The position numbers were made by a program, and so were the translations under genes. Under the pieces are notes generated by a model. It worked only from the letters and a program-made list of their open reading frames with translations. It was not told the DNA's origin and did no database searches. From the NCBI GenBank assembly GCA_013265495.1, contig MU058213.1:434001-498000 (forward strand): a stretch of 64,000 bases of DNA. Reading direction: 5' to 3'. Positions 28,895 to 51,827 of the stretch are shown here, in pieces. Each line of letters starts with the position of its first letter. Position 1 is the stretch's first letter. This DNA is from Vicugna vicugna (lineage: Eukaryota).

Positions 28895-29030
28895 GGGGAG
28901 GGTATAGCTCAATGGTAGAGTGCATGCTTAGCATGCACAAGGTCATGGGTTTGATCCCCAGTACCTCTGTTAAATAAAAAAATAATAATAATAAATAAGT
29001 AAACCTAATTACCCCTCCCCCCCAAAAAAG
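28895..29030 (+). mobile_element. tRNA-derived SINE (Vic-1-like)
   Basis: Same body and tail as the 15731 copy; 16-bp TSD TAAAGCAAGAGCTTCA (28876-28891 / 29031-29046). Confidence 0.9.
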
Positions 29031-39447: not shown

Positions 39448-41330
39448 GTAATGCGGTCTTAATATGTGCTGTTAGCGGTTGAAAGAGAGGGGTGACCATT
39501 CCTTTCTCCACTTCGAATATAACATCCCACAGATACCATGACACTCTGGTGTCAGCCCTTCATCAAAAGCACATTACTGCATGATCACAGGAATCCTCAT
39601 CATCTTCACTGTGTTGAAGTTTTATTGTAACATTTTTTCAAGAGAAACTGTTCTTTTTTTTCCAGACAGCCTTAGATTTTTGCTTGATTTCCCTTATGTA
39701 TTTACTTCTCCTTTACTTACTTCCTTACACATAATCACCCTCTGTTGTTATCTGCACTGGAAGATGGACACAGTGACATGGAAATTTCCAGTTCACTTAT
39801 GTTTGACTCCAGACTGTGCTTTTGTACTTGGGTTTAAATATGGTTATGTCTGATACACTGGGGATTTACATGCGAAATGAACTGACAGAGGTGTGCTGTG
39901 AAGGTCAGGCTCAGATGTAGCTTTTTCAGTTAGCCCTGCTTTAATCTTTCCTGTTACCCACTCTTTGCTGAGGATTCATGGCACGTCATCTGTTAGATTG
40001 AGGTGGAGCATGTCCTGGTCAACAAAGCAAAGAAGAATGGAACTGATGGGGAAGGCTTGGTCTGGGGACATCCCAGCCACTTGAAGCTGCATGGAAAAAA
40101 GGACATCCAGGTACAGACAATCCACTTGGCAAGCAGTCTGCTAACAGCAATGTTTCAGTCCCCAGGTAGAGGTTCGGGAACAGAATGCCAGACCTTGGTC
40201 AGGGGAACCGGACAAGGTTTCCCACCAAGTACAGTGCTGGTGGTGGACAAGATGGATGCTAAGGCTTAGACCCAGAAGGCGCAGATCAATGTCAGCGTCG
40301 AGTTCCCTGTCCAGACAGGCTCAGCCAAGACCCTGGGGCCCAGCCAAGGTGCAGCGAATGGCTCCTGAGACTGGCCCAGGCATATGACAGTGCTTACCTC
40401 CAAGGTGAAAAGGGGTGGGCTCGGGGGCAGCCCAGCAAACAGGGCTTTGGAGAATGATTGGAGCAGCAGTCGGAGGCGCCTGGGAAAACACAGTGGTCTA
40501 GGGCTGAACAACACGAGACCAAAGAAAAATAAGCAAAACAAGAGGTTTGAAGTAGAGAGCGATCCTGAGCCCAAGAGTGGCAGCTGTGGGCAACAGCTTT
40601 TGTGGAATTTCCTGCAGCCTAGGCAGGACCCTTGCCGGGGCACCTGTATTTTGCTGAATCCAGGAAGATGAGAGCAGCCCTCTTCCTACCCACCAGAGGA
40701 GCCTGCAGGTGAGGAGGTGAAAGGGAGAAGAACAGGGTTGCACAAACTGGGAAAGGCAGTCGGCGCAGCTTCTTTGACACTAGGTACCAGATTAAAGGAC
40801 CCTTAATCTCTTGAGTTTGCTAGCCATCTGAATCACACCTTCCTTGGAGGTTGATACTTCGGAATTTCTATTTGAAACAGGCTTGGAGACTTTAAACTTC
40901 TGTTTGTAGCTCCTCCTGATCTTGAAGCTGAAATCAGAATTCTGAATGTGTCGTCCTGGGGGGTTAGTTAGAGTAGCTGATGACTGAGTTACACAGAAGC
41001 TGAGAAGTTGCATCGGGGAAAGTAAACACAAACAGTTAGAAGTTCACTGTTTTGTGGGCTTTTTCTCGACCTTCTACTCCATTGAAAAGGGAAACTTCTA
41101 ACATTCAAGTTCCCAATTATCAGACATAACTTTATTTAAATGTGAATTCCACAAGGCACTGGACTTCTGTGTCATTTCCATTTCTTGGCAAGAGTAATTG
41201 AGTGTTGAAATTTTTGCTAACTGTGTCCTCTGGTGTGTAGGATTGCTCGTCTGTGTGGTTAATGTTGTTTGTCTGAAATTTAAGGACTGTCCCTTCGTCT
41301 GGTCTTTTTAAACCTTTCTTTCTCATCTAG

Positions 41331-41365
41331 TTCGTAAGAAGCGAGTTGAAGGAGACCGAAGGTAA
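41331..41365 (+). CDS. TMOD2: Tropomodulin-2 exon 10 coding part, VRKKRVEGDRR*
   Basis: Acceptor ctttctcatctAG|, TAA at 41363-41365. The nine coding exons total 1056 nt = 351 aa + stop. Confidence 0.96.
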
Positions 41366-43570: not shown

Positions 43571-44164
43571 TATAAATATATAGAATGTATACAGTTCTTG
43601 CTTGCTTTTTGTAGACGTGTTTTATTTACCATGTTGCCAAAGGGAAGAACACTTCTCTTAGTTGTCTTTCTCCTATCCCCTTAGGTTTGTTGCAGATGTA
43701 TTTAAGTGCTGAGTCCCTGACATGCCCCACTAAGTAAGGCTTTTTCCTTTCTTTTCTCATTTACTCTCTCTCTTGCCTTCACTCTGAAGAAATCTTGGAT
43801 CCTACAGAGTGTTCCCTGCAGCCCCAAGGTGCTGTGGACCAGGAACTAAAGCAATTGTTGCAGACCCTGGCAGAGAGCAAGGAAAAACAAAAACAAAAAC
43901 AGGATTTGTTGACTATGCTGCTGTTGTTGATAGTATTAAAGCAAGATAATGAGATATTTCCAAATTAGTTCTGTTTCTAGCTTATAAAATAGTTGGGTCA
44001 CATGTAATAGAGTCTGCTAACTCAAATATTTATTATTAATCAGTTAATCATTTGCTTTTGAAGTAGCTTGAGAGGTGACATTTCCATGAGTATTCATGTA
44101 ACTATTAGAAGATAAATTGACATTCTGGGGAACGTATAAGTCATTTAATTAGGCTAGGACCATT

Positions 44165-44612
44165 TCTTCATCTGTCCAGTACGTGTGTGTGAGTAGAAGC
44201 TCTTTCGTGATCCTGAGCATAATTAATCCCTTGCCATCCGTCATGGTGGGGCATAATGTATATAAAATATTTTTATATGGAGGCATTTTGCCAAATATTA
44301 TGTCAAGGTATTTGGCAACATCTGGACAATTGACTGAAGGGAGATCATCTCTCCCCAGACCACCTCCTTTTCGAAACCTTTTAGACTTGTCCAGGCATCC
44401 ACTAGGTGTAAAATCACTCACCTGGACTTGCAGGCTCCTGTCACCAACACCCATCCCAGCATATGTGGAAGGTGACTTCTAGAGAGATCATGTCATTAGT
44501 CCAGTAGTATATCTCCCCATCTGCCTGCAGTGGATAATGGCAGCTGTTTTGTCCTCATCGGCACAATGAAATCCCTTCCTTTCATCTTGGTAGAGCATAA
44601 TGTAAATAAATG

Positions 44613-44645
<33 letters not shown>

Positions 44646-45175
44646 TTGCCAAATATCTAACTGGGTATTTGGCTGCATCTGGACCACTGATTGAAGGGAG
44701 ATACTCTCTCCCCAGCCCCATTTCCCTTGTCCTATTTAGAGTTGCCTCCGGCCCAAGTTAGATGTGAAGTCACTCCCTAGAGTTTGCAGCTTAGATCACC
44801 AACCACCAAATTTCCTAGCATGTATGGAAGATAACTCTTAGGGAGTAAATATCAGAAGCCTGGAAATCATTTCATCATTCCAGCACCGAATCTCTCCATA
44901 TGCCGAAAGTGTGTGAGTGGAAGTGCTTTCATCTTCATCAACATGAGGAAGCCCCTTCCTTCCATCTTTGTAGGATATATTGTATATAAATATTCTGTAC
45001 ATAACAATTGCCAAATACTGTAAGGAGGTATTTGGCTAAAGCTGGATACCTGATTGCAGGAGCTGCTGTCTCCCAGGCCCTCTCCCTGTCTCCTCTCAGT
45101 TGCCACGGGCCTAGGTTAGACAGAGAATCGCTAACCTGGAGGGGCACGTGCAGCTCACCCATCTCAGAGCACGCA
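44165..45175 (+). repeat. Diverged tandem triplication (~360-nt period) in the TMOD2 3' UTR; each unit has a Pumilio element and two hairpins
   Basis: Shared ordered anchors: CCCTT..., TGTAWATA (44257, 44601, 44981), GCCAAATA..TATTTGGC (44290, 44648, 45010), CTGGA..TGA.TG, GGAG..CTCCC, then TCACC. Confidence 0.85.
44615..44644 (+). repeat. (GT)15 microsatellite
   Basis: Direct reading. Confidence 0.95.
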
Positions 45176-47096
45176 GTTCATCCTACAAGAAACGCCCATC
45201 TCCATTTAAAAATTCAGAAAGCATCCTGATGCCTATACTCCTCAAGACAATTTCCCGGAGGGAAGCCTGGCCAATCAGACCCAAAGAACGGCTGCTTCTC
45301 TTCCAGACAGAAGTGTGGCCCTGGCATTAGGGCCACCAGTGTGTTCTGAATAACTCTACGAGAACGTTTCAGATAGTCAGACCTGAAACTGGCTTTAGCA
45401 TCAACATGCTATGAATGTAAGATAGCCCTTTAAATTTTATGAAAGCGTTTGCAGATAGTTTCTTTTTTCATGGATATGATGTACTTAGCCCTCCTGCAGG
45501 CACTGTGACAGAGGCAGAGGAAGTGTGTGAACTCTAGATTATTATAATTTGATCTGTGTTTCTGGGTTTGGGGGTAGAGCGCCTTTTTGAAAATCTTTAG
45601 TTCAAGTATTGATGACATCAGTGAAAATGGGTAGGGGGCAGTAAGTTGTGAATAGTGGGTTCTGTGGTATGTTGCTTATACTCAGCAGGACTGTTTTGGA
45701 GTTAGGTTTTAAGCCATGATTCTGAAGTTTCTTTCCTCTTTTCCACTAATGAAGCAATGATAGCTACTTTCATTTTAATGAGCATAGAACTAAGAGGAAA
45801 TATTCTAGCTCTGCCTTCCAGTAGCAGTTTCCCCTTATTGTTCCTTAGTGAAAATATCCCCATCACTCACCATGCCATCTTTGAAGGTAAAAGATTGAGA
45901 CACATGCAAAGGAGAGGTGTGAGAATGCTAGGAAGCATCAGGTGAGCCCTCTGGATGAAAATCACATGATCAGGCCTCCTAGCAACTAGCTGGAGAGAGA
46001 AAAGTACCCAGAACCTCAAGGATGTATTCATTGCTCTTGTTCCCAACTCTAGGTCAGACTGAATTTTGTTTTTGTCTTTCAGGAGTATAGTAAATTAAGG
46101 GGCTAAGTGCAGTGAGGAAGGACAATGGAAATTGAAGGTTTTAATTTGCTTAAGGGCAGAAGTAAGCTCTGCCCAGCTTACCTCGTTCCCATCTGCCCAT
46201 AACAGCGAAGATTAAACATTTAGTAGGTGGATGGACAAGGAGTTTCAAGGTTTGAATTTGTAACCTGCCTCTGGGTACTGTTCTAGGAAGAGTATACAAG
46301 AACCAGAGGTTATCCCAGTTGCGTGAGGCATCACTGACTTGGGGGGGTGAAGGAGCCTGGACCTTGCTCTGGCATCTTCCGTGGCAGTCATTCTGAGCAC
46401 ACTGGCTCTGCTGGTTGGTATGGTGGAAGGGCACCATACTGCAGATGTGGAGACTGACTCCTAATCCCATCACCAACACTTAGCAGGTGTATGATCATGG
46501 GCAATTCATTCAATTGCCTGACAATTATAGACTCTACAGGGGGAAGAGCACTGGATTTGGAGTCAAGAAACTTGGACACTTGGCTCCATACTTCTTTAGC
46601 TGGGAGACTTCAGGGCAAACCACTGAGTCTCTCAGGCCTGCGGTTCTTCAGCTATACTATAACGGGAATAATCTTCACTAACTACCTCACAGAGTTGTGG
46701 TGAGAATATGATCAGATAATGGGATGAAAACATTCTACTGGAAAGGGCTATACAAAAGTGGGAGATCATTTCTGTTATCTATCCACCAGTGTTTCCCACT
46801 GCCTCTCGAATCCATTTTATTTTCTTCTAACCAACCATTACATCTTTGCCACCTTTGTGAGTATGGAGAACTGACGCATGAGTGTGATGTGGGGGGCTGG
46901 AATTATTTCACTTTCAACACAGAAGGGGGAGAGGTGGTTGAAGGGCGTGGTGGGTGTTACGTATACCAGTTAGGAGTCTGGTCGGGCATTTTCCTGGGCC
47001 GCTTGACAGCACCCTGGGACATGGTCAGGACCTTGCAGAGAGCCTAAGGCTGGACACAGGAGGAAGCAACAGTGATTAAGAGTTGAGGTGGAGTTG

Positions 47097-48573: not shown

Positions 48574-49213
48574 AATAAACAGCATTTTTTATTGCATTTA
48601 AAAATGTAAAATACTTGCATGCCACCAATCTGTAATCTCTTACCAGTTCAGATGCCTGTAACTTGTGACCTTACGTGTACCTGTATTGTTTTAAAGAGAA
48701 CAAAGGAAATAATACTTTGTAGACGGTTTAAACTCATACTGGCAACATTTATTTGGCTAAGCAGTTATTGAAAAATTCACAGTTTCATTTTTCATTTTGA
48801 AACTTTTCAAAGGTAGACGATTATATTCATTAGGGAATTAAAGACTAATTTGCCTTTTAAATGTGAAGTTGAACAGTATGTGGGAAATAAATGTGTGCAA
48901 AAGCAAAATGTATGAAGTGTGAAATACTTTTACCCTGATAATTAATAAGGATCTCAGTTGTCAGAAACAGGTGCAGTGTTTTGACCCTTTGGAATTAGCC
49001 AGCCTGACTTAATGCTAAGGTGAAAATATACTGTTTTAATTAATCGAGATCATTCTGCTTTTCAAAGATATAATGTATTCATTTGTGTCTGGAATGAAAT
49101 TTCCAAGTGAAAATGTATAGCATATTAGGAATTAATAAACTTTCCTTTTAAAATGAAAGTAATGACTGATTTAATCTAGATAATTTTTAGACACAGTGTC
49201 TCTTTAAAATAAA
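48574..49213 (+). terminator. Cluster of polyadenylation signals (AATAAA at 48574, 48886, 49134, 49208)
   Basis: Four hexamers with nearby TGTA motifs and U/GU-rich downstream sequence; the main site is probably 49134 or 49208 (inference). Confidence 0.55.
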
Positions 49214-51745: not shown

Positions 51746-51827
51746 TTTTTTAATGGAGGTACTGGGATTGAACCCAGGACCTCATGCATGCTAAGCATGG
51801 GCTCTGCCACTGAGCTATACCGTCCCC
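51746..51827 (-). mobile_element. tRNA-derived SINE (Vic-1-like), minus strand
   Basis: Reverse complement of the same SINE body (TGGAGGTACTGGGATTGAACCCAGGACCTCATGCATGCTAAGCATG..CCACTGAGCTATAC). Confidence 0.85.

Follow-up and report, generated by a model that had tools for sequence, protein, structure and literature searches.

Repetition of a structured element within a single untranslated region has a precedent in the MAT2A 3′ UTR, which carries repeated paralogous conserved hairpins. NORAD (LINC00657) combines Pumilio sites (PREs) with hairpins in tandem units. In the accessible parts of the papers on this RNA, it is described as having 12 units and 17 PREs (PMC4947167), with unit counts given as 12–14 between accounts (PMC4947167, PMC8192489). 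The units are roughly 300 nt long and have one or two PREs each, with UGURUAUA as consensus (PMC4947167). The motifs follow one another in a set order: the PRE, a 4-bp stem-loop, a U-rich stretch and an 8–9-bp stem-loop (PMC4947167, PMC8192489). Pairs of SAM68 UAAA motifs, 15–35 nt apart, are also part of the design (PMC8192489). Ordinary targets of PUM1 and PUM2, with PREs clustered in their 3′ UTR, make a third point of reference (PMC5580656).

The locus described here lies in 64 kb of DNA from Vicugna vicugna, the whole of which is called the window below. Three diverged units stand in tandem downstream of a tropomodulin gene's stop codon, and Pumilio sites and hairpins are retained in all three, as well as in orthologues of the first unit where these cover them. 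We take this gene to be TMOD2. Its product is a capping protein of neuronal actin filaments, and the tail of its message is unusually long. We hold, with middling confidence, that the array represents a cis-regulatory module of the TMOD2 3′ UTR, triplicated long ago, and that the message is a normal PUM target, not a decoy of the NORAD type. Since each copy retains a Pumilio site together with a hairpin, the module is probably a repeated control element of an ordinary kind rather than a NORAD-like sponge. The array is not described in the literature searched on TMOD2 and Pumilio. Neither is a hairpin of the TMOD2 3′ UTR in the literature searched, with the proviso that the search phrase may miss ‘3′ UTR’ as printed.

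Gene context and extent of the 3′ UTR

Exons with the Tropomodulin Pfam domain were found in the window, the closest solved structure being that of Tropomodulin-1. The gene that precedes the array is the first of two tropomodulin genes arranged in tandem. Its exon chain was obtained via tblastn with a paralogue from the same genome, the terminal exon and the stop codon by a frame scan. The last coding exon (VRKKRVEGDRR, 41330..41365, + strand) ends with the stop codon at 41363–41365, and the 3′ UTR runs from 41366. The array begins 2.8 kb and ends 3.8 kb downstream of the stop codon. To judge from sequence context and from the length of the mouse UTR, the terminal poly(A) signal is most likely the AAUAAA at 49134..49139 (+ strand). 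If so, the 3′ UTR would most likely be about 7.8 kb long, and the array, with about 1.05 kb, would account for some 13% of it. In mouse, the Tmod2 clusters labelled UTR3 span chr9:75565619-75574008, that is, at least 8.39 kb (PMC6407921). Because the predicted length matches this mouse 3′ UTR of at least 8.39 kb, the array is likely to be within the mature TMOD2 message. The location proposed by the sequence-only reading, in the TMOD2 3′ UTR, is thus upheld as regards the stop codon and made probable as regards the mRNA. Separately, the share of sampled words found in sequencing runs, a hint only, was 0.97–0.99 for one organism and 0.42–0.43 for two others; three of those runs are recorded as RNA, and the RNA-labelled runs contain 0.42 of the sampled words.

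Three tandem units

On the + strand, unit 1 (U1) occupies 44150..44495 (346 nt), unit 2 (U2) 44496..44870 (375 nt) and unit 3 (U3) 44871..45200 (330 nt). The three were recognized by a repeat search, MAFFT alignment, nhmmer and segment z scores, to which K2P distances add that U3 is the most diverged, above all in its 3′ part. Identity between any two units is 62–67%. The repeat search returned two families of three copies each, one of 82 nt (65–72% identity) and one of 53 nt (68–74%), with a start-to-start spacing of 344–380 nt, and mean column identity in the MAFFT alignment of the units was 73%. With an nhmmer profile, exactly three copies were found within the 64-kb window (E 1e-94 to 1e-104). 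Homology runs along the whole unit, as z scores against shuffles are 4.7–8.6 in the 5′ flank, 23–28 in the core and 2.5–18.6 in the 3′ part. TRF misses the array because the units are too diverged. K2P distances between units are 0.45–0.55, as expected of an old triplication. Both the three diverged tandem units of about 360 nt and their ancient duplication, which had been proposed from the letters of the sequence, are thus confirmed. The further proposal that the linkers had drifted while the core was kept stands for the retention of the core, but drift of the linkers is only slightly greater, identity being 71–76% in the core vs 66–75% in flanks and linkers.

An ordered core is present in U1, U2 and U3 alike, as first read: a pyrimidine tract, a PRE, a long hairpin and a short one. 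The pyrimidine-rich tracts, placed by sequence reading and alignment, are at 44227..44244 (U1), 44572–44588 (U2) and 44952–44969 (U3), on the + strand. Motif matching gives four UGUAHAUA sites on the same strand, one in U1, one in U2 and two in U3, all at the positions first reported. The U1 site, UGUAUAUA followed by AA, is at 44257..44264, and two orthologue ORFs, P0003 and P0005, retain it. That of U2, UGUAAAUA, at 44601..44608, overlaps an AAUAAA hexamer (44605–44610), and a (GT)15 microsatellite (44615..44644, + strand) sits between it and the hairpin. In U3, a second copy of UGUAUAUA (44981..44988) is followed by UGUACAUA (44996..45003). The distance from PRE to hairpin is 17–39 nt, and the predicted accessibility of the PREs, at the 64th–83rd percentile, is unremarkable.

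Each unit then has a long hairpin of 10–12 bp with the arms GCCAAAUA and UAUUUGGC. Energies and z scores were computed for each copy folded alone, pair probabilities in a wider sequence context, all for the + strand. The U1 hairpin (44288..44318; 12 bp, 7-nt loop) has −12.6 kcal/mol, a z of −4.1 and an in-context pair probability of 0.88. For U2 (44648..44673; 11 bp, 4-nt loop) the values are −14.4 kcal/mol, −4.7 and 0.51, and for U3 (45010..45036; 10 bp, 7-nt loop) −13.4 kcal/mol, −3.4 and 0.29. Pattern matching puts the starts of the stem-loop cores at 44290, 44648 and 45010, as the sequence-only reading had it. In context, the hairpin is predicted not to be dominant in U2 and U3, and in U3 its 3′ arm has another predicted partner, in competition with the hairpin. 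Folds of the whole module (107–125 nt) have a z of merely −1.4 to −1.7. A conserved spacer of 20 nt separates the long hairpin from the short one, GGGAGA/UCUCCC, at 44339..44355 (U1), 44696–44712 (U2) and 45059–45073 (U3), on the + strand. This GGAG/CUCC hairpin, said to be present in every unit, is well formed, with 6 bp, in U1 and U2, whereas U3 has a weak version of 4 bp; local pair probabilities are 0.8, 0.38 and 0.09.

Smaug-type elements have a CNGG loop, and Roquin-type elements a tri-loop. The long-hairpin loops AUGUCAA, AACU and GUAAGGA fit neither, and both assignments were rejected.

Pumilio binding in mouse brain

In neonatal mouse brain, iCLIP places five Pum1 and three Pum2 sites in the Tmod2 3′ UTR (PMC5580656, supplementary file 3), and PUM2 CLIP in adult mouse brain gives 21 wild-type clusters on Tmod2 (PMC6407921, supplementary file 1). 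TMOD2 is absent from one supplement of another study (PMC11310781). The array had been cast as a PUM-binding platform: PUM1 and PUM2 are indeed cross-linked to the orthologous mouse UTR, but, as the mouse CLIP clusters take up about half of the zone in question, their overlap with the positions predicted for the PREs lacks statistical significance. Five of the eight iCLIP sites are in the distal 1.3 kb of the UTR, away from the array. A mouse Pum2 iCLIP site with TGTACATA has some 4108 nt between it and the 3′ end in mouse (PMC5580656), and for the second PRE of U3, also TGTACATA, the distance to the likely 3′ end is some 4160 nt. Matched by its distance to the 3′ end alone, this PRE is a candidate counterpart of the mouse site.

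Constraint among units and in orthologues of the first unit

Of 312 ungapped columns, 156 are the same in all units. The arms of the long hairpin coincide exactly with the two longest runs without variation, of ten columns each, and a second-longest run of at least ten was met in 97 of 20 000 permutations. All seven fixed positions of the PRE are the same in the three units, as is the ATAAA tail. Within the hairpin, eight of ten pairs never vary and the other two vary on one side, U-G vs C-G. A two-sided compensatory change was proven at none of the base pairs of the hairpins.

Four chance ORFs from other sources, P0001, P0003, P0004 and P0005, serve as orthologues of U1, which is their best match, with a minimum nucleotide divergence of 7.9–14.9%. 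P0002 (588 aa, nine matched stretches) was rejected as an unrelated low-complexity repeat protein. The U1 PRE is unchanged in P0003 and P0005, and P0001 differs at the degenerate fifth position only (U to C). Four changes fall in the core stem, and all of them keep a standard pair, given the aligned partner base predicted by parsimony: A-U to G-U (in P0001, and in P0003/P0005), U-G to C-G (P0003/P0005) and U-G to U-A (P0004). Substitutions are few, and by our own estimate three independent transitions would all preserve pairing by chance in roughly 1 in 5–7 cases. The loop varies freely. In the most diverged orthologue, the longest identical stretch is the PRE block, where all eight residues agree, compared with 9 of 21 in the 5′ flank. 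No orthologue of U2 or U3 turned up, the protein search with the minus-strand ORF of U3 returning no candidates. When the hairpin pattern was used to look for orthologues elsewhere, it gave 24 loci in metagenome contigs, all matching the hairpin alone, three bacterial MAGs among prokaryote genome contigs, which is chance level, and no match in viral contigs.

A proposed repeated control element and its alternatives

A segment of about 360 nt of the long TMOD2 3′ UTR went through two tandem duplications, which are old and probably date from about the time of the placental radiation or earlier. The copies have kept the order of their elements, from the pyrimidine tract to one or two UGUAHAUA sites, a short AU/GU-rich spacer and the hairpin of 10–12 bp with its invariant arms; beyond it the element continues with the 20-nt spacer and the small second hairpin. 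As an ordinary but multiplied control element, the array would have its three to four sites occupied by PUM1 and PUM2, with repression or destabilization of the message in neurons as the result, the neighbouring hairpin perhaps recruiting a second factor or setting the exposure of the adjoining sequence. A functional module would offer a defined handle on how Pumilio sites cooperate with nearby RNA structure, with three natural copies, four sites and three hairpins to work with.

The same features might be the leftovers of an old duplication drifting in a long UTR, its PRE-like and hairpin sequences being functionless and still present through chance and because an AT-rich, CpG-free sequence mutates little. 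There would then be nothing unusual about the array, an old tandem duplication whose host UTR is by coincidence a target of Pumilio. That core and flanks are nearly alike in identity, that pairs show no compensatory changes and that whole-module folds are not significant all fit such drift, as does the general excess of UGUAHAUA in the window (25 matches on both strands vs 5.8 expected); in P0004, the hairpin part, with 79% amino-acid identity, has diverged to a similar degree as the 3′ part, with 73%. Yet neutral drift accounts poorly for hairpin arms that form the longest invariant runs and for a PRE that is invariant at its fixed positions in units which differ at half of their columns. It would also have to explain orthologue changes that are all compatible with motif or pairing while the loop is free to vary, and a PRE block that outlasts its surroundings in the most diverged orthologue. 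We regard drift as unlikely, though far from negligible. A very unlikely origin, by contrast with a local duplication, would be an old fragment of interspersed repeat that was amplified in tandem, the palindrome being a transposon feature. The DNA search of the same genome returned the query alone and, with U2 as the query, missed even U1 and U3; it is too insensitive for units this diverged, so that by itself it does not rule out old repeats. Part of the unit moreover has a 47-nt motif in common with two other loci, L027 and L028, but the motif that these two share occurs nowhere else. Two pattern searches of the 2-Gb genome found neither dispersed copies of the unit nor an excess: the exact hairpin pattern has 8 loci in 2.03 Gb, three of them in these units, and a 23-base pattern with up to three mismatches has 12 matches, again three in these units, vs two for the reversed control. 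At the protein level, HMMER with the U1 ORF against 1.84 billion representative proteins gave the single-locus U1 orthologues and one low-complexity false match only. The unit has no terminal inverted repeats inside it, and Rfam is empty there as well (two tRNA-like matches elsewhere at the gathering threshold, and noise only in the array at E up to 10).

Two readings give the module another function. The conserved UGUA(A/U)AUAAA could equally be seen as a CFIm UGUA enhancer that runs into a poly(A) hexamer and is followed by U/GU-rich sequence, in which case the array would be a cluster of alternative 3′ ends, and the TMOD2 isoform made there would have about 3 kb of 3′ UTR. U2 has every motif of the set, with AATAAA at 44605 followed four bases on by (GT)15, the ATAAA tail is common to all units, and shortening of the TMOD2 3′ UTR is reported in the accessible part of one study (PMC12742782). 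However, the hexamers of U1 and U3 are both a weak variant (UAUAAA), and the hairpin and the remaining module are left unexplained. Mouse PUM2 CLIP clusters are found on both sides of the candidate position, and their continuation past it argues that the long isoform is abundant in brain; we think such an array of 3′ ends quite improbable. It is extremely unlikely that the module is a triple microRNA site, masked or exposed by the hairpin, whose 5′ arm UUGCCAAA would pair with miR-182-5p. We take this arm to be an 8-mer seed match, and UUGCCAAAUA is invariant in the three units. Human TMOD2 is also among the 3240 miR-182-5p targets predicted by miRWalk, according to the accessible part of the source (PMC6839211), but a list of this kind is unspecific. 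Furthermore, an A-to-G change breaks the seed match in P0001, P0003 and P0005 with pairing kept, and the equally invariant 3′ arm is left unexplained.

Comparison with NORAD and other known systems

The repeated control element that we prefer shares several parts with NORAD, as the latter is described in the accessible text. Both consist of anciently duplicated tandem units of a few hundred nt (about 300–400 nt), with one or two Pumilio sites each, which is the number found in U1, U2 and U3, and both have short (4–6 bp) and long (8–12 bp) predicted hairpins with variable loops. Together with the PUM CLIP signal on the mouse UTR, this similar list of parts is what might make the array a NORAD-like decoy or platform, a multivalent sequestering device for PUM or a condensate scaffold placed inside an mRNA. 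The differences make that highly unlikely. The array has three units and four PREs, with no further copy in the window, vs 12–14 units (12 in the count that goes with 17 PREs) in NORAD; units fill most of the NORAD transcript, whereas the array covers about 13% of the 3′ UTR of a protein-coding mRNA. The order of the hairpins is reversed, the long one of 10–12 bp preceding the short one of 4–6 bp, and no U-rich element lies between them. SAM68 UAAA pairs at 15–35 nt are absent from the array, where UAAA occurs only in the PRE tails (twice, adjacent, in U2). Two of the four PREs depart from UGURUAUA: the UGUAUAUA sites fit it, while UGUAAAUA and UGUACAUA conform only to the general PRE. A genome search for NORAD by its paired-PRE pattern was swamped by microsatellites, with 12180 matches vs 10789 in the control. 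The likeness to NORAD is a loose analogy: PREs and hairpins in tandem units are there, as the sequence-only reading had proposed, but the number of units, the order of motifs and the SAM68 pairs do not follow.

The MAT2A 3′ UTR is comparable in that one type of hairpin is present in several copies within a single UTR, with conserved stems and variable spacing. The TMOD2 hairpins differ in sequence and loop, are without a known reader protein and, unlike those of MAT2A, are embedded in long units that are clearly homologous. Were each unit to act through Pumilio and a hairpin-binding partner jointly, the three copies having been kept for some 100 million years, the array might serve the translation or dendritic localization of TMOD2, as an independently evolved counterpart of the NORAD unit embedded in an mRNA. 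We find this two-part platform doubtful. A neuronal double-stranded-RNA-binding protein is an example of a partner that may be imagined for it. If the module is functional, the design of the NORAD unit, a Pumilio site and hairpins in tandem, can arise within a coding message.

A further parallel is with ordinary targets of PUM1 and PUM2 that have clustered PREs. Like them, the array presents sense-strand UGUANAUA in a long neuronal 3′ UTR, with four sites on the gene strand past the stop codon, and mouse Tmod2 itself appears in two tables of PUM CLIP targets (one of them in PMC5580656). What sets TMOD2 apart from these targets is that its sites sit in a triplicated module of about 360 nt, each with a hairpin at a fixed 17–39 nt.

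Three tandem units in the probable 3′ UTR of a tropomodulin gene

The gene that carries the array was traced by Pfam matches and by tblastn, the query being a paralogue taken from this genome. Its tropomodulin coding exons lie between 11906 and 39446 on the forward strand, and the last one, VRKKRVEGDRR followed by the stop codon, at 41330-41365 on the same strand, which places the array 2.8-3.8 kb past the stop. The closest solved structure to its product is Tropomodulin-1. A second tropomodulin gene, recognized by its Pfam exons, sits on the same strand about 40 kb downstream of the 3′ end (G000:C1645:523079-543825, +). In other mammals TMOD2 and TMOD3 stand in tandem, so that we take the gene in the window to be TMOD2, the downstream gene fitting TMOD3. 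The likely terminal poly(A) signal is the AAUAAA at 49134, shortly preceded by UGUA motifs; it would give a UTR of about 7.8 kb. In mouse, the PUM2 CLIP clusters annotated to the Tmod2 3′ UTR span chr9:75565619-75574008 (PMC6407921, supplementary file 1), hence a UTR of at least 8.39 kb. A hint that the array is transcribed comes from two studies: three of their runs, labelled as RNA, have contigs that contain a 0.42 share of the words sampled from 43600-45600. Two tRNA-like Rfam matches, one intronic (28898-28969, forward, 35.5 bits), the other downstream of the gene (51754-51824, reverse, 51.2 bits), are probably copies of tRNA-derived SINEs, not tRNA genes.

The array itself is real and above chance. 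Three diverged units, U1 (44150-44495), U2 (44496-44870) and U3 (44871-45200), follow one another head to tail on the forward strand, as the sequence-only reading had it, and come out of a repeat search, a MAFFT alignment and a profile alike. The repeat search gave an 82-nt family (three copies, 65-72% identity to the reference copy) and a 53-nt family (three copies, 68-74%), the copies starting 344-380 nt apart; mean column identity of the alignment is 73%, and with the profile made from it the 64-kb window yields three copies and no more (E 1e-94 to 1e-104), everything else there staying within noise. At the array, Tandem Repeats Finder called only (GT)15 (44615-44644), the units being too diverged for it. 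Pairwise identity is 62-67% (K2P 0.45-0.55), U3 being slightly more distant from both U1 and U2 than these are from one another. If neutral change in mammals runs at about 1-2.2e-9 per site per year, such distances would put the duplications at some 100 million years ago or more, an estimate sensitive to constraint and to lineage rate.

Anatomy, folding and constraint

From 5′ to 3′, each unit comprises a pyrimidine-rich tract, a Pumilio response element (PRE, UGUAHAUA) followed by AA, an AU- or GU-rich spacer, a long hairpin, a conserved spacer of about 20 nt and a short GGGAGA/UCUCCC hairpin. A motif search returned the PREs where they had been proposed, at 44257 (U1), 44601 (U2) and 44981 (U3), with a second one in U3 at 44996, all on the forward strand. 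In U2 (44601-44644) the PRE overlaps a canonical AAUAAA and the perfect (GT)15, which lengthens the spacer between PRE and hairpin, starts four bases later, so that this unit resembles a poly(A) site.

All three units have the same arms in the long hairpin, UUGCCAAAUA and GGUAUUUGGC. Folded alone, these hairpins (44288-44318, 44648-44673 and 45010-45036 in U1, U2 and U3) reach -12.6, -14.4 and -13.4 kcal/mol (z -4.1, -4.7 and -3.4). When folding is computed locally as an ensemble, the long hairpin pairs with probability 0.88, 0.51 and 0.29 in the same order and the short one with about 0.8, 0.38 and 0.09; firm formation of both is predicted for U1 only. Modules of 107-125 nt fold with no exceptional stability (z -1.4 to -1.7), and the PREs are moderately accessible (64th-83rd percentile). 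RNAalifold, run on 44226-44362 with the matching parts of U2 and U3, favoured, over the local short hairpin, a long-range helix that joins the pyrimidine tract to GAAGGGAG; it reported five pairs changed on both sides and no net covariation bonus.

Half of the ungapped columns (156 of 312) are invariant among the units. The two longest invariant runs, ten columns each, are exactly the two arms of the long hairpin, and a second-longest run of this length arose in 97 of 20000 permutations. All seven fixed positions of the PRE are invariant. Eight of the ten long-hairpin pairs never vary, the other two alternating one-sidedly between U-G and C-G, and the loops vary in length and sequence. Homology spans the whole unit, core and flanks alike (z against shuffles 4.7-8.6 in the 5′ flank, 23-28 in the core, 2.5-18.6 in the 3′ part). 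The view that linkers drifted around a kept core is only mildly true: core identity is 71-76% against 66-75% in the flanks, a small gap.

Orthologues were sought among chance ORFs, derived from assembled public reads, that have entered protein collections. Four of them (P0001, P0003, P0004 and P0005) align best to U1 among the units; none was recovered there for U2 or U3. Reading their residues back onto the codons of the window gives minimum divergences of 7.9%, 14.9%, 9.7% and 14.2%, respectively. The U1 PRE is unchanged in P0003 and P0005, and P0001 has U to C at the degenerate position, which still satisfies UGUAHAUA. The changes in core hairpin pairs are of three kinds, A to G and G to A facing U, and U to C facing G, and all keep standard pairing, given the partner base predicted by parsimony; one further ORF change breaks the outermost pair, a pair absent from U2 and U3 in any case. 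The data are few. By our estimate, three such pair-keeping transitions would arise by chance roughly once in five to seven, and the changes are compatible with an RNA structure, not proof of it. P0005 (96 aa, against 44186-44469) is composite: over its first 45 or so residues it matches U1's short hairpin and 3′ part translated in reverse complement, and over the last 47 the 5′ flank, PRE and long hairpin translated forward, so that its contig is either chimeric or has an inversion.

Pumilio binding

Tmod2 is already a PUM target in published supplementary CLIP tables. Its 3′ UTR holds five Pum1 and three Pum2 iCLIP sites in neonatal mouse brain (mm10; PMC5580656, supplementary file 3) and 21 PUM2 clusters in wild-type adult brain (PMC6407921, supplementary file 1). 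Five of the eight iCLIP sites fall in the distal 1.3 kb, away from the expected position of the array. Measured back from the 3′ end, one mouse Pum2 iCLIP site, with TGTACATA, stands at about 4108 nt. The second PRE of U3 has TGTACATA as well, at about 4160 nt when counted from the likely end here, and no other copy of this motif occurs in this stretch of the UTR. By this distance the two are candidate counterparts. The unit spacings (380 and 344 nt), applied from the mouse site, lead inside two more CLIP clusters, a weak agreement as clusters cover about half of the zone. Nearer the end, UGUAUAGC (within 49113-49139) precedes the likely cleavage site by about 45 nt, much as in mouse a Pum2 iCLIP site, TGTAAAAA, stands about 45 nt from the Tmod2 3′ end. 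UGUAHAUA is over-represented throughout the window (both strands together have 25 matches, where dinucleotide shuffles predict 5.8), so that motif counts alone overstate significance.

Origin and possible role of the units

A numerous transposon family is an unlikely source of the units, judging from pattern searches and protein comparisons. The exact hairpin pattern occurs at eight loci in 2.03 Gb, three of them the units (reversed-pattern control, one), and a 23-base pattern made of the conserved 3′ arm and spacer, with three mismatches allowed, at twelve, again including the three (control, two). HMMER searches of 1.84 billion representative proteins with the U1 chance ORF returned only single-locus orthologues and one low-complexity false match. 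The DNA search of the genome is insensitive to diverged copies, the U2 query returning U2 alone, and a very old, rare repeat family is conceivable as the source. Two matches of the 23-base pattern, otherwise unrelated loci (L027:638-684, forward; L028, minus strand, about 638-694), have in common a 47-nt motif (39 of 47 bases identical) resembling the 3′ arm and spacer of the unit, which occurs nowhere else in the genome; L028 has an additional small palindrome, CCAAACAU/AUAUUUGG.

The reading we prefer, to which we give about an even chance, is that a composite element of PRE and hairpin in the TMOD2 3′ UTR was triplicated in tandem long ago and works as an ordinary cis-regulatory module in multiple copies. 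That the units are a neutral relic of an old duplication is less likely, at about one chance in four. A cluster of alternative polyadenylation sites is a further reading, of small probability. A CFIm motif with a poly(A) hexamer is another way to read the conserved UGUA(A/U)AUAAA, U2 has the canonical hexamer followed by (GU)15, and shortening of the TMOD2 3′ UTR in disease settings is reported (PMC12742782). The 5′ arm of the hairpin also contains UUGCCAAA, which we take to be an 8-mer seed match of miR-182-5p, but an A-to-G change in three of the four orthologous ORFs destroys the match while keeping the pairing, which argues against a microRNA site. We found no published description of the tandem architecture in the literature on TMOD2 with Pumilio, with hairpin and 3′ UTR, or with alternative polyadenylation.

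Comparison with NORAD

NORAD, a long non-coding RNA, is described as having 12 units, each about 300 nt long, with 17 PREs in all, that duplication produced over 100 million years ago; in each unit one or two UGURUAUA sites are joined by two stem-loops, of 4 bp and then of 8-9 bp, with a U-rich stretch between them (Tichon et al., PMC4947167). Pairs of UAAA sites for SAM68, 15-35 nt apart, are further described by Chorostecki et al. (PMC8192489). In comparison, the TMOD2 array has three units and four PREs, its long hairpin precedes the short one instead of following it, there is no U-rich element between the hairpins, and inspection of its sequence shows no UAAA pairs. It makes up only about 13% of the mRNA tail, and nothing in our results for the array suggests action as a decoy. 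With unit count, hairpin order, U-rich element and UAAA pairs all different, the NORAD-like platform proposed in the sequence-only reading is unlikely as it was stated. In design the array does resemble a NORAD unit, having similar parts and likewise arising by duplication, but it lacks several defining features.
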